51,554 nt of DNA from the IMG/VR virus record IMGVR_UViG_2531839664_000034; one strand, written 5' to 3'. This stretch comes from a virus. Lineage: Duplodnaviria > Heunggongvirae > Uroviricota > Caudoviricetes. Every line of letters begins with the position of its first letter. The stretch's first letter is position 1. Of the stretch, positions 24,391 to 25,823 are shown piece after piece. The notes beneath the pieces are model-generated. The model worked only from the letters and a program-made list of their open reading frames with translations, searched no databases and was not told the origin of the DNA. The translations under genes and the position numbers were made by a program.

Positions 24391-25601
24391 TGAGAAAATA
24401 CAGCGTTAATTCTTTTGTTTTTGAAAGTGGAGAAAGGTTTTGCCATGTGATAGATAAAATATCAGGAGAACCTTTATATTATCCAAACCTCTATATAACT
24501 ACACAGGTCAGGAACAGATCAAAGTCGATCAACACGATGGAGGCTATTGGTGGAAATCTGGCATTACTATATCGATTTTTTTCTCTCAGGGGAATAGATA
24601 TAAGAGAGAGAATAGCTACGTTGCAATTTCTGGATCTTAATGAAATTGATGATTTGGCTGATTTCGCTTCAAAAAACTTCAAAGACAAAAGAACAACATT
24701 TTTGCATGAGCGTAGTGTTGTTAAAGAACCGACAAAATATTTCAGGTTGACCGTTATTATTAATTATCTTGAATGGCTGTGTGAAGTTCACACAATCGGA
24801 ACTAAGAGTAAAGATAATCAAAAAATAATGGACAGTTTTATTGATAAGCTAAAAATTAAAAGACCATCAAATGAAAATGGATATAAAAATCAAATCCATG
24901 AGAAAACATTAAGCAGAGAACAGCTTGATATTTTATTTGAGATAGTCAGACCTGGCTCTGAACTTAATCCTTTTGCTGATGAAGTTCAGTCAAGAAACCG
25001 ATTGATTATATTACTGCTTTTTTCTTTTGGGATCAGGGCAGGAGAGTTGTTAAATCTTCGCATCAGGGATATCGATTTTTCTTCAGGAATGATTGTAATA
25101 AAAAGACGACCCAATGATAAGTTTGATCCAAGAGTTAATCAACCACTTGTGAAGACTTGTGAGAGAATGTTTTCTGTGGGCAATACATTAATGGCTGAGT
25201 TATTTAATTATATTATGCAGGATAGGCGTCATGTGAATAATTCAAAAGGTAACGATTTTCTCTTTATTACATATAAAAAAGGATATTCACAGGGAAAACC
25301 ATTGTCTTTTTCTTCATATCATAAAATTATTAATATGATAAGCGAGACTTCACCTGAACTGGCCGAACTAACAGGACATAAATTAAGACATACATGGAAT
25401 TATGAGTTTTCCTCACTGGTAGATGGGATGGATGAGACTTTTTCGGAGGAAAAGGAAGAACAAATCAGATCGTATCTTATGGGATGGAAAACGGGTTCTG
25501 GAACGGCGCAAATTTATAACAGAAGGCATTTGGTTGAAGAGGCTCACAAAACTTCTCTTGCCATGCAGAACCAACTGATGGAGGGATACATTAATGAATG
25601 A
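24391..25601 (+). CDS. Tyrosine recombinase 1 of a recombinase trio (GinA-like)
   Basis: Catalytic-domain motifs GIRAGELLNLRIRDID (Arg I), HKLRHT (HxxR), GTAQIYNRRH (Tyr); strong Shine-Dalgarno AAAGGAG before ATG at 24391 (track ORF begins 24318). Confidence 0.7.
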
Positions 25602-25823
25602 TTTAAAATTTCAGGAAAATAGAGTGTTTTTAAAAGCAAAACAGTCTGACTATTCATTTTGTATCAATGATGGAAAGTGGAGATTAAACAGAAATAGCCT
25701 TGTTAATGTTGAGGCAGTATCACTTCTCCTTGAATCAAAATTAATTGATGGATATCTGAATATACGCTTGCTTTTTATGCCTGCCGATATAGCCCCAGCT
25801 ATGTATCGAAAATAAATAATGCC

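Follow-up and report, generated by a model that had tools for sequence, protein, structure and literature searches.

Two tyrosine recombinase genes follow each other closely in the stretch of DNA studied here, and between them lies an open reading frame (ORF) of only 73 codons. Is this ORF a gene in its own right, or is it a piece of one of its neighbours? A first, sequence-only reading of the window (the whole stretch of 51,554 nucleotides that was analysed) had left two answers open, a small gene coupled to recombinase 1 or the frameshifted N-terminus of recombinase 2. The second of these held up under comparison with related genomes, and the first did not. The 73-codon ORF is almost certainly the severed 5' fragment of a ginB pseudogene, which was cut by a 2-bp duplication in Escherichia coli O121:H19. 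The gene name refers to the GInts (Genomic Islands with three Integrases), a class of elements that carries a ginABCD operon and is also known as the Tn6571 family (Bardaji et al. 2017, PMC5385486).

Results

Extent and annotation of the small ORF

The small ORF was found where it had been described, between recombinases 1 and 2. According to the ORF list and the sequence, it occupies positions 25594..25815 on the plus strand, with an ATG start and 73 codons followed by TAA. Its frame differs from that of the downstream ORF (25594 mod 3 = 1; 25824 mod 3 = 0). Two distances of the sequence-only reading needed correction. The overlap with recombinase 1 had been taken for a 4-nt ATGA, but the TGA of recombinase 1 lies at 25599-25601 and the shared sequence comprises 8 nt (ATGAATGA). 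Likewise, the spacer between the stop of the small ORF and ATG 25824 is not 9 but 8 nt long (25816-25823). The frame of recombinase 2 is open from about position 25749, upstream of this ATG. The same 9 nt, ATGAATGAT, are present at 25594 and at 25824, so that both pieces start with MND.

Mononucleotide shuffles of 24318-27873 gave on average 0.21 ATG-initiated ORFs of at least 73 codons on the plus strand, whereas the real sequence holds four: besides the small ORF, these are recombinase 1, recombinase 2 and the first fragment of the interrupted third gene. The small ORF is thus not a chance product. A GGAGG Shine-Dalgarno motif, located inside the end of ginA, precedes position 25594 by 8 nt, and similar motifs precede ginA, ginC and ginD; before ATG 25824 no Shine-Dalgarno motif was found. 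A promoter and terminator scan of 23700-27000 yielded counts at the level of shuffled sequence, with no internal terminator or convincing promoter near the small ORF.

RefSeq lists the small ORF as the hypothetical protein WP_000998846.1 and the downstream fragment as the 381-aa 'tyrosine-type recombinase/integrase' WP_272482446.1. The latter is given a non-canonical start, ATA 25812, which overlaps the stop of the small ORF; this start is an annotation choice that rescues a broken gene. The protein cluster of the 73-aa product has five near-identical members, and the three with a source name are all from E. coli. The 73-aa ORF alone has no Pfam match, and its sole NCBIfam match consists of 10.6 bits to the start of NF041502. 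Coordinates of all features of the operon are collected in Table 1.

Table 1. Features of the gin operon and of its lesions, numbered from the first nucleotide of the window.
Feature	Position	Strand	Basis
Recombinase 1 = ginA, 403-aa tyrosine recombinase, intact	24390..25601	+	PF00589, E 7.7e-14
Authentic ginB codons 1-56 (MNDLK...DGYLN), true start and N-terminus	25594..25761	+	identity to L001, homologue alignment
2-bp tandem duplication (AT/TA), placement ambiguous within 25760-25764	25760..25761	+	alignment of window and L001
Out-of-frame tail, codons 57-73, IRLLFMPADIAPAMYRK, and TAA	25762..25815	+	alignment; the other frame matches homologues
Remainder of ginB, original frame	25764..26957	+	frame translation; PF00589 on the intact protein
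C-to-T change (CGT to TGT), catalytic Arg342 to Cys, motif RRLRYT	26619..26619	+	list of differences from L001
N-terminal fragment of ginC, overlapping the ginB stop by 8 nt	26950..27854	+	alignment with L001:7649-9535
IS600 (IS3 family) in ginC, including one CTC copy	27852..29117	-	segment absent from L001; RefSeq IS600 transposase
C-terminal fragment of ginC	29118..30102	+	ORF list; L001 alignment
ginD, small 131-aa accessory protein, intact	30137..30532	+	WP_024174260.1 is a listed GinD orthologue

The small ORF is the N-terminus of a longer recombinase

In E. coli CFSAN061771 (locus L001), the small ORF and recombinase 2 are joined in one gene for a 453-aa protein, WP_224481976.1, which has the start of the former and the stop of the latter. 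The first 56 residues of this protein and of the small ORF are identical, and the rest is shifted by 2 bp; therefore, ATG 25824 is the internal Met77 codon of ginB. Codons 57-76 (25764-25823) are left without a start codon in the window, and the annotated 377-aa ORF extends from Met77 to the stop.

Homologues from the protein databases have 434-538 aa and share 33-96% identity with the 453-aa query: 96% in Enterobacter and Klebsiella, 89% in Pectobacterium, then tiers at 60%, 54% and 45%, and finally 33-38% in Pantoea, Salmonella and Citrobacter. They cover 82-100% of the query, and most of them, including all with more than 45% identity, cover 94-100%. The alignment of homologues that the sequence-only reading had recommended confirmed that the N-termini of recombinase 2 homologues match the small ORF. 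The match extends over codons 1-56, to ...GYLN, and continues with T-LAFYAC-YSP-YV--IN--M, which in the window is encoded in the frame of recombinase 2. The 17-codon tail of the small ORF has no counterpart in any aligned homologue.

Homologues beginning at the equivalent of position 25824, which had been named as the refuting observation, were not encountered. Annotated proteins of 377 aa from Klebsiella aerogenes, Enterobacter cloacae and Serratia marcescens, which fall into the same 90% cluster, were considered as natural Met77 starts. We rejected this, because the 76 upstream codons are open and in frame in the DNA of K. aerogenes and S. marcescens, the two loci that were read. The 377-aa annotations in these two loci are start-calling differences over an intact ORF of 453 codons.

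A species scan with one genome per species yielded 80 loci, which belong to Gammaproteobacteria, Betaproteobacteria and a few further groups. An uninterrupted ORF of at least 430 aa is present in 77 of them, and the remaining three have internal stops of their own. The match lies in a single frame and starts at query residue 40 or before in 76 loci, and in 78 a ginA-like, recombinase-sized ORF ends at the ginB start. Outside the E. coli cluster, the small-ORF sequence forms the N-terminus of proteins of 434-574 aa, and in no genome examined does the split arrangement occur as a separate conserved gene. The single long ORF in homologues and loci indicates that this is the ancestral state, from which the O121 lineage departed through the 2-bp duplication.

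The same picture emerged from the NCBIfam equivalog profile NF041502 ('integrase_1'), which has a cut-off of 350 bits. The intact 453-aa protein scores 386 bits over profile positions 2-440. The two pieces in the window tile this match: residues 20-57 of the small ORF align to positions 2-39 (10.6 bits) and the 377-aa ORF to positions 60-440 (331.8 bits), so that both stay below the cut-off. The gene in the window is a broken member of NF041502.

We also located the break in an AlphaFold model of a 96%-identical intact protein (59 homologues), which has a mean pLDDT of 79 and values above 85 over residues 11-140. The modelled N-terminal domain consists of four short strands (residues 12-38) and helices at 48-64, 67-84, 91-100, 103-121 and 129-137, and is followed by the catalytic domain. 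As a whole, the model matches the two-domain tyrosine recombinases XerA, integron integrase (IntI), XerH and Cre over 345-412 alignment columns. In this model helix 48-64 is interrupted by the frameshift, which follows residue 56, and helix 67-84 contains Met77; the two fragments are predicted neither to respect a domain boundary nor to be folding units.

These results bear directly on the proposal of a genuine small gene that is coupled to recombinase 1 and provides the recombination module with a 73-aa accessory protein. Such a gene would explain the good Shine-Dalgarno motif and the start/stop overlap with recombinase 1, and the ORF is annotated by RefSeq and present in many O121 isolates. 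However, in every intact relative both the Shine-Dalgarno motif and the overlap belong to the start of ginB, and the region lies within one long ORF in 77 of the 80 loci. No separate homologue exists beyond the five-member cluster, the product belongs to no Pfam family, its final 17 residues are read out of frame and match nothing, and the break interrupts a helix in a domain that is modelled with confidence. A separate small gene is thus extremely unlikely, and we regard the ORF as the first part of ginB.

A 2-bp duplication confined to O121-type genomes

We searched the stretch 25300-27000 in 5426 complete E. coli genomes and found it in 28. Nine of these match the window at 100% identity; they are O121:H19 genomes or CDC strains of this type. 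The match is 2 bp shorter in 18 genomes and 3 bp shorter in CUVET21-1780, which lacks the 2 bp and has a 1-bp deletion of its own; the 2 bp are thus missing from 19 of the 28. The site reads GAATATACG in the window versus GAATACG in the intact copies. Compared with L001, the window differs by this AT as the sole indel and by six substitutions. Genomes with the shorter match carry in RefSeq a single 1362-nt 'site-specific integrase', as exemplified by that of CFSAN061771. M160133 is another strain whose operon is intact. Among the loci that were compared individually, the duplicated form is found in the window, L002 and L005, and the unduplicated form in L001, L003, L004, L006 and L007. The copy of E. 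coli A16, which is 98% identical, has the wild-type site as well, as do K. aerogenes and S. marcescens.

In CUVET21-1780 (L003, NZ_CP115342.1), the 1-bp deletion, at about position 4644, splits ginB into parts of 296 and 165 aa. Either this ginB decayed independently or the assembly is wrong at this point.

A tandem duplication of two nucleotides raises the question whether the frameshift could be programmed or phase-variable, with GinB made conditionally by -1 slippage or by switching of the dinucleotide. Past the frameshift and ahead of the small ORF's stop codon, five consecutive T (CTTTTTA, 25771-25777) do offer a place at which slippage by -1 would bring back the frame. Yet the repeat has only two copies of the dinucleotide and is not a hypermutable tract, and the state of the site strictly follows lineage, with nine identical O121-type genomes on one side and 19 others on the other. 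By direct reading, 25750-25815 contains no in-register heptamer of the type X XXY YYZ, and none of the homologues uses two frames. Moreover, a restored protein would still carry Cys342, and ginC is interrupted anyway (see below). A switch of this kind is exceedingly improbable. A sequencing or assembly error in a gene that is really intact has virtually no probability: errors in the form of 2-bp indels are known from AT-rich DNA, and the lone 1-bp deletion of CUVET21-1780 is possibly an error of this kind, but nine complete genomes from different laboratories and sources share the 2 bp at 100% identity, and the exact 73-aa and 377-aa products are each recorded on at least 1000 contigs.

Further lesions in the same operon

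The frameshift is not the only damage to this copy, and two more lesions had escaped the sequence-only reading. The first is the substitution of Arg342 of GinB by Cys. An HMM alignment to XerA pairs Arg342 with the LRH-box arginine, the catalytic Arg II of the RHR triad, His365 with the downstream His and Tyr374 with the nucleophilic Tyr. Residues R197, R342, H365 and Y374 of intact GinB are invariant in all 59 homologues. The catalytic R-H-R-H-Y feature is thus found in the GinB lineage and is missing from the window copy, which has Cys342 in addition to the frameshift. Judged from this alignment, the Arg342Cys exchange inactivates ginB a second time and does so independently of the frameshift. 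For GinA, the check consisted of the PF00589 match.

The other lesion is an insertion of IS600 into ginC. The inserted segment of 1266 nt has the ends TGAGG...CCTCA and is flanked by a 3-bp CTC target duplication. It splits ginC into ORFs of 307 and 336 aa, which RefSeq calls 'hypothetical protein'.

The recombinase trio is the ginABCD module of a GInt

In the intact relatives, four co-oriented genes encode proteins of 403, 453, 628 and 131 aa, with 8-nt overlaps between the first and second and between the second and third gene, and a gap of 34 nt before the fourth. Of the 80 loci of the species scan, 58 have a ginC-like ORF next and 53 a ginD-like ORF of similar size. For ginA, we used the RefSeq start at 24390, which has AGGAG 6 nt upstream; the longest ORF begins at TTG 24318. 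The ginA and ginD products of the window each differ from those of L001 by one amino acid. The intact 628-aa GinC protein has no Pfam or NCBIfam match and is named 'DNA-binding protein' in RefSeq.

The sequence-only reading had not recognised the trio as a known system. On the basis of the gene architecture and of a published list of ginC and ginD genes, it is the ginABCD module of a GInt. In Additional file 10 of PMC10214605, ginC and ginD orthologues were compiled by PSI-BLAST starting from the GInt of Pseudomonas stutzeri DSM 4166, whose GinC is WP_014595881.1. The file includes WP_077516586.1 (GinC) and WP_048990917.1 of the intact E. coli copy and, for O121:H19 strain 16-9255, a ginC pseudogene fragment together with WP_024174260.1, the 131-aa ORF of the window. 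The orthology of GinC and GinD to the reference GInt was looked up in this list and not recomputed. Since ginC and ginD of the locus are listed, recombinase 2 is ginB by position.

The locus shares with the GInts the order of two tyrosine recombinases, a large gene without integrase signature and a protein of about 130 aa, with overlapping genes. GinC of GInts is described as having a recombinase fold in which part of the catalytic motif is missing, and is often annotated as hypothetical; the lack of Pfam and NCBIfam matches for the 628-aa protein would be consistent with this. The hosts of the homologues (Pectobacterium, Pantoea, Escherichia, Klebsiella, Pseudomonas, Xanthomonadales and Betaproteobacteria) agree with the reported range of GInts. 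There are also differences. The window copy is broken three times, by the ginB frameshift, by R342C and by IS600 in ginC. Furthermore, DUF6387 and alpA-like genes lie between the outer junction and ginA, whereas ginA delimits the 5' end of the described GInts. The described islands are flanked by imperfect direct repeats of 10-17 nt.

Other mobile elements with several recombinases resemble the locus less closely. [quoted passage not shown] Their makeup is also similar, with two catalytic tyrosine recombinases, one non-catalytic protein of tyrosine recombinase fold, for which GinC is the putative counterpart, and one small accessory protein. However, the non-catalytic Tfp is encoded by the second gene of the SEs, whereas here the putative counterpart is the third, as in GInts; a search of the tfp/srap list (Additional file 3 of PMC10214605) showed that the accessions of this locus are absent from it. 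Tn554, with TnpA, TnpB and TnpC, and the recombinase-in-trio (RIT) elements were set beside the locus by their descriptions. Both are site-specific and have several tandem tyrosine recombinases. Tn554, in which TnpC is regarded as the counterpart of GinD, differs in having two recombinases and TnpC only and in occurring in Firmicutes. RIT elements differ in that all three recombinases, of 315-410 aa, are catalytic and a small fourth gene is absent.

Surroundings of the operon

The first 155 nt after ypjA (22480-22634) match the ypjA-ssrA junction of genomes with an empty site. The inserted DNA thus starts near 22635, at the ssrA hotspot. The DUF6387 and alpA-like genes are located at 22898-24055, and the same pair precedes ginA in K. 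aerogenes and S. marcescens (L006, L007). In a search for an ssrA or tRNA attachment site, ARAGORN and Rfam called no tRNA or tmRNA in the whole window.

The autotransporter gene ypjA/ehaD itself (20153-22469) is broken. RefSeq lists it as frameshifted, it is intact in CFSAN061771, and a beta-barrel ORF of 108 aa stands separately at 22143-22469. Further to the left, positions 1-16066, with a TOTE conflict system primase, ISEc8 and YfjI-family genes, are not colinear with RM8352 and match the arrangement of 2015C-3107. These left 16 kb meet the remaining DNA in 50 nt (16017-16066) equivalent to the 3' part of tRNA-Ile; ARAGORN detected no complete tRNA in the window. The junction suggests a rearrangement between two tRNA-Ile-associated islands.

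Downstream of the gin operon, the DNA of the O121 window differs from that of the intact E. coli relative. In the latter (L009, NZ_CP042896.1, 7500-18500), a relaxase/mobilization gene, a SIR2 protein, a 'three component ABC system' and a further integrase are found; GInts have been described as putatively non-mobilizable. In this region (32352-33662, and the ALIL sites 32688-32804 and 35283-35399), the window contains two inverted copies of an IS3-family element, which are marked by two matches to the ALIL pseudoknot on opposite strands, where RM8352 has one. The extra copy is an IS difference at the level of strains. Within the lambdoid prophage, the Rfam small RNAs STnc100 (plus strand) and AgvB (minus strand) lie back to back at 44050-44302.

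Discussion

Overall, our data assign the 73-codon ORF to the 5' end of ginB, and no evidence against the pseudogene reading was found. In intact copies, ginB starts at the ATG that corresponds to 25594 and is a gene of 453 codons that overlaps ginA and ginC by 8 nt each. Such overlaps suggest that ribosomes ending ginA may be well placed to reinitiate at ginB, and likewise those ending ginB at ginC; translational coupling has been suggested for the related SEs (PMC10214605). Ribosomes that start at 25594 in O121:H19 would read 17 nonsense codons after codon 56 and stop at 25813-25815. The remaining 397 codons would be left in the other frame without a ribosome-binding site, and their product would lack the essential Arg anyway. 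The break would cut the N-terminal (core-binding) domain within its first long helix and, as neither piece is predicted to be a folding unit, no active GinB would be made.

The 73-aa peptide is probably still translated, given its strong Shine-Dalgarno motif. It comprises a beta-hairpin region and half a helix. We infer that the peptide, if made, would be without function; a residual or acquired role is conceivable but improbable. It is conceivable that a -1 slip in the T run gives traces of a full-length protein, which would carry R342C. The free fragment might interfere with GinB of other GInts in the cell or modulate it, or slippage at the five T might supply full-length protein in trace amounts, so that the split would be a regulatory state; we consider this very unlikely. 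The pseudogene itself is an ordinary one; both the class of the element and this locus had already been catalogued.

Circular excision, site-specific integration and the need for all four genes are known from GInts of Pseudomonas only (PMC5385486). There, a frameshift in ginA, ginB or ginC, or disruption of ginD, abolishes the formation of circles as well as integration (PMC5385486). With the ginB frameshift, Cys342 and the split ginC, the recombination module of the O121:H19 copy would be dead and the island fixed in place. By analogy with the Pseudomonas GInts, which are distant relatives, we infer that the island would be unable to excise or to integrate by its own means.

For annotation, the consequence is that the two RefSeq pieces, WP_000998846.1 and WP_272482446.1, should be treated as one pseudogene. 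In addition, the 2-bp duplication is a clean marker of the lineage; beyond these two uses the finding has little value. With regard to the organism, Shiga-toxin-producing E. coli O121:H19 carries beside ypjA, at the ssrA hotspot, a GInt-type island which by implication would not be mobile on its own.
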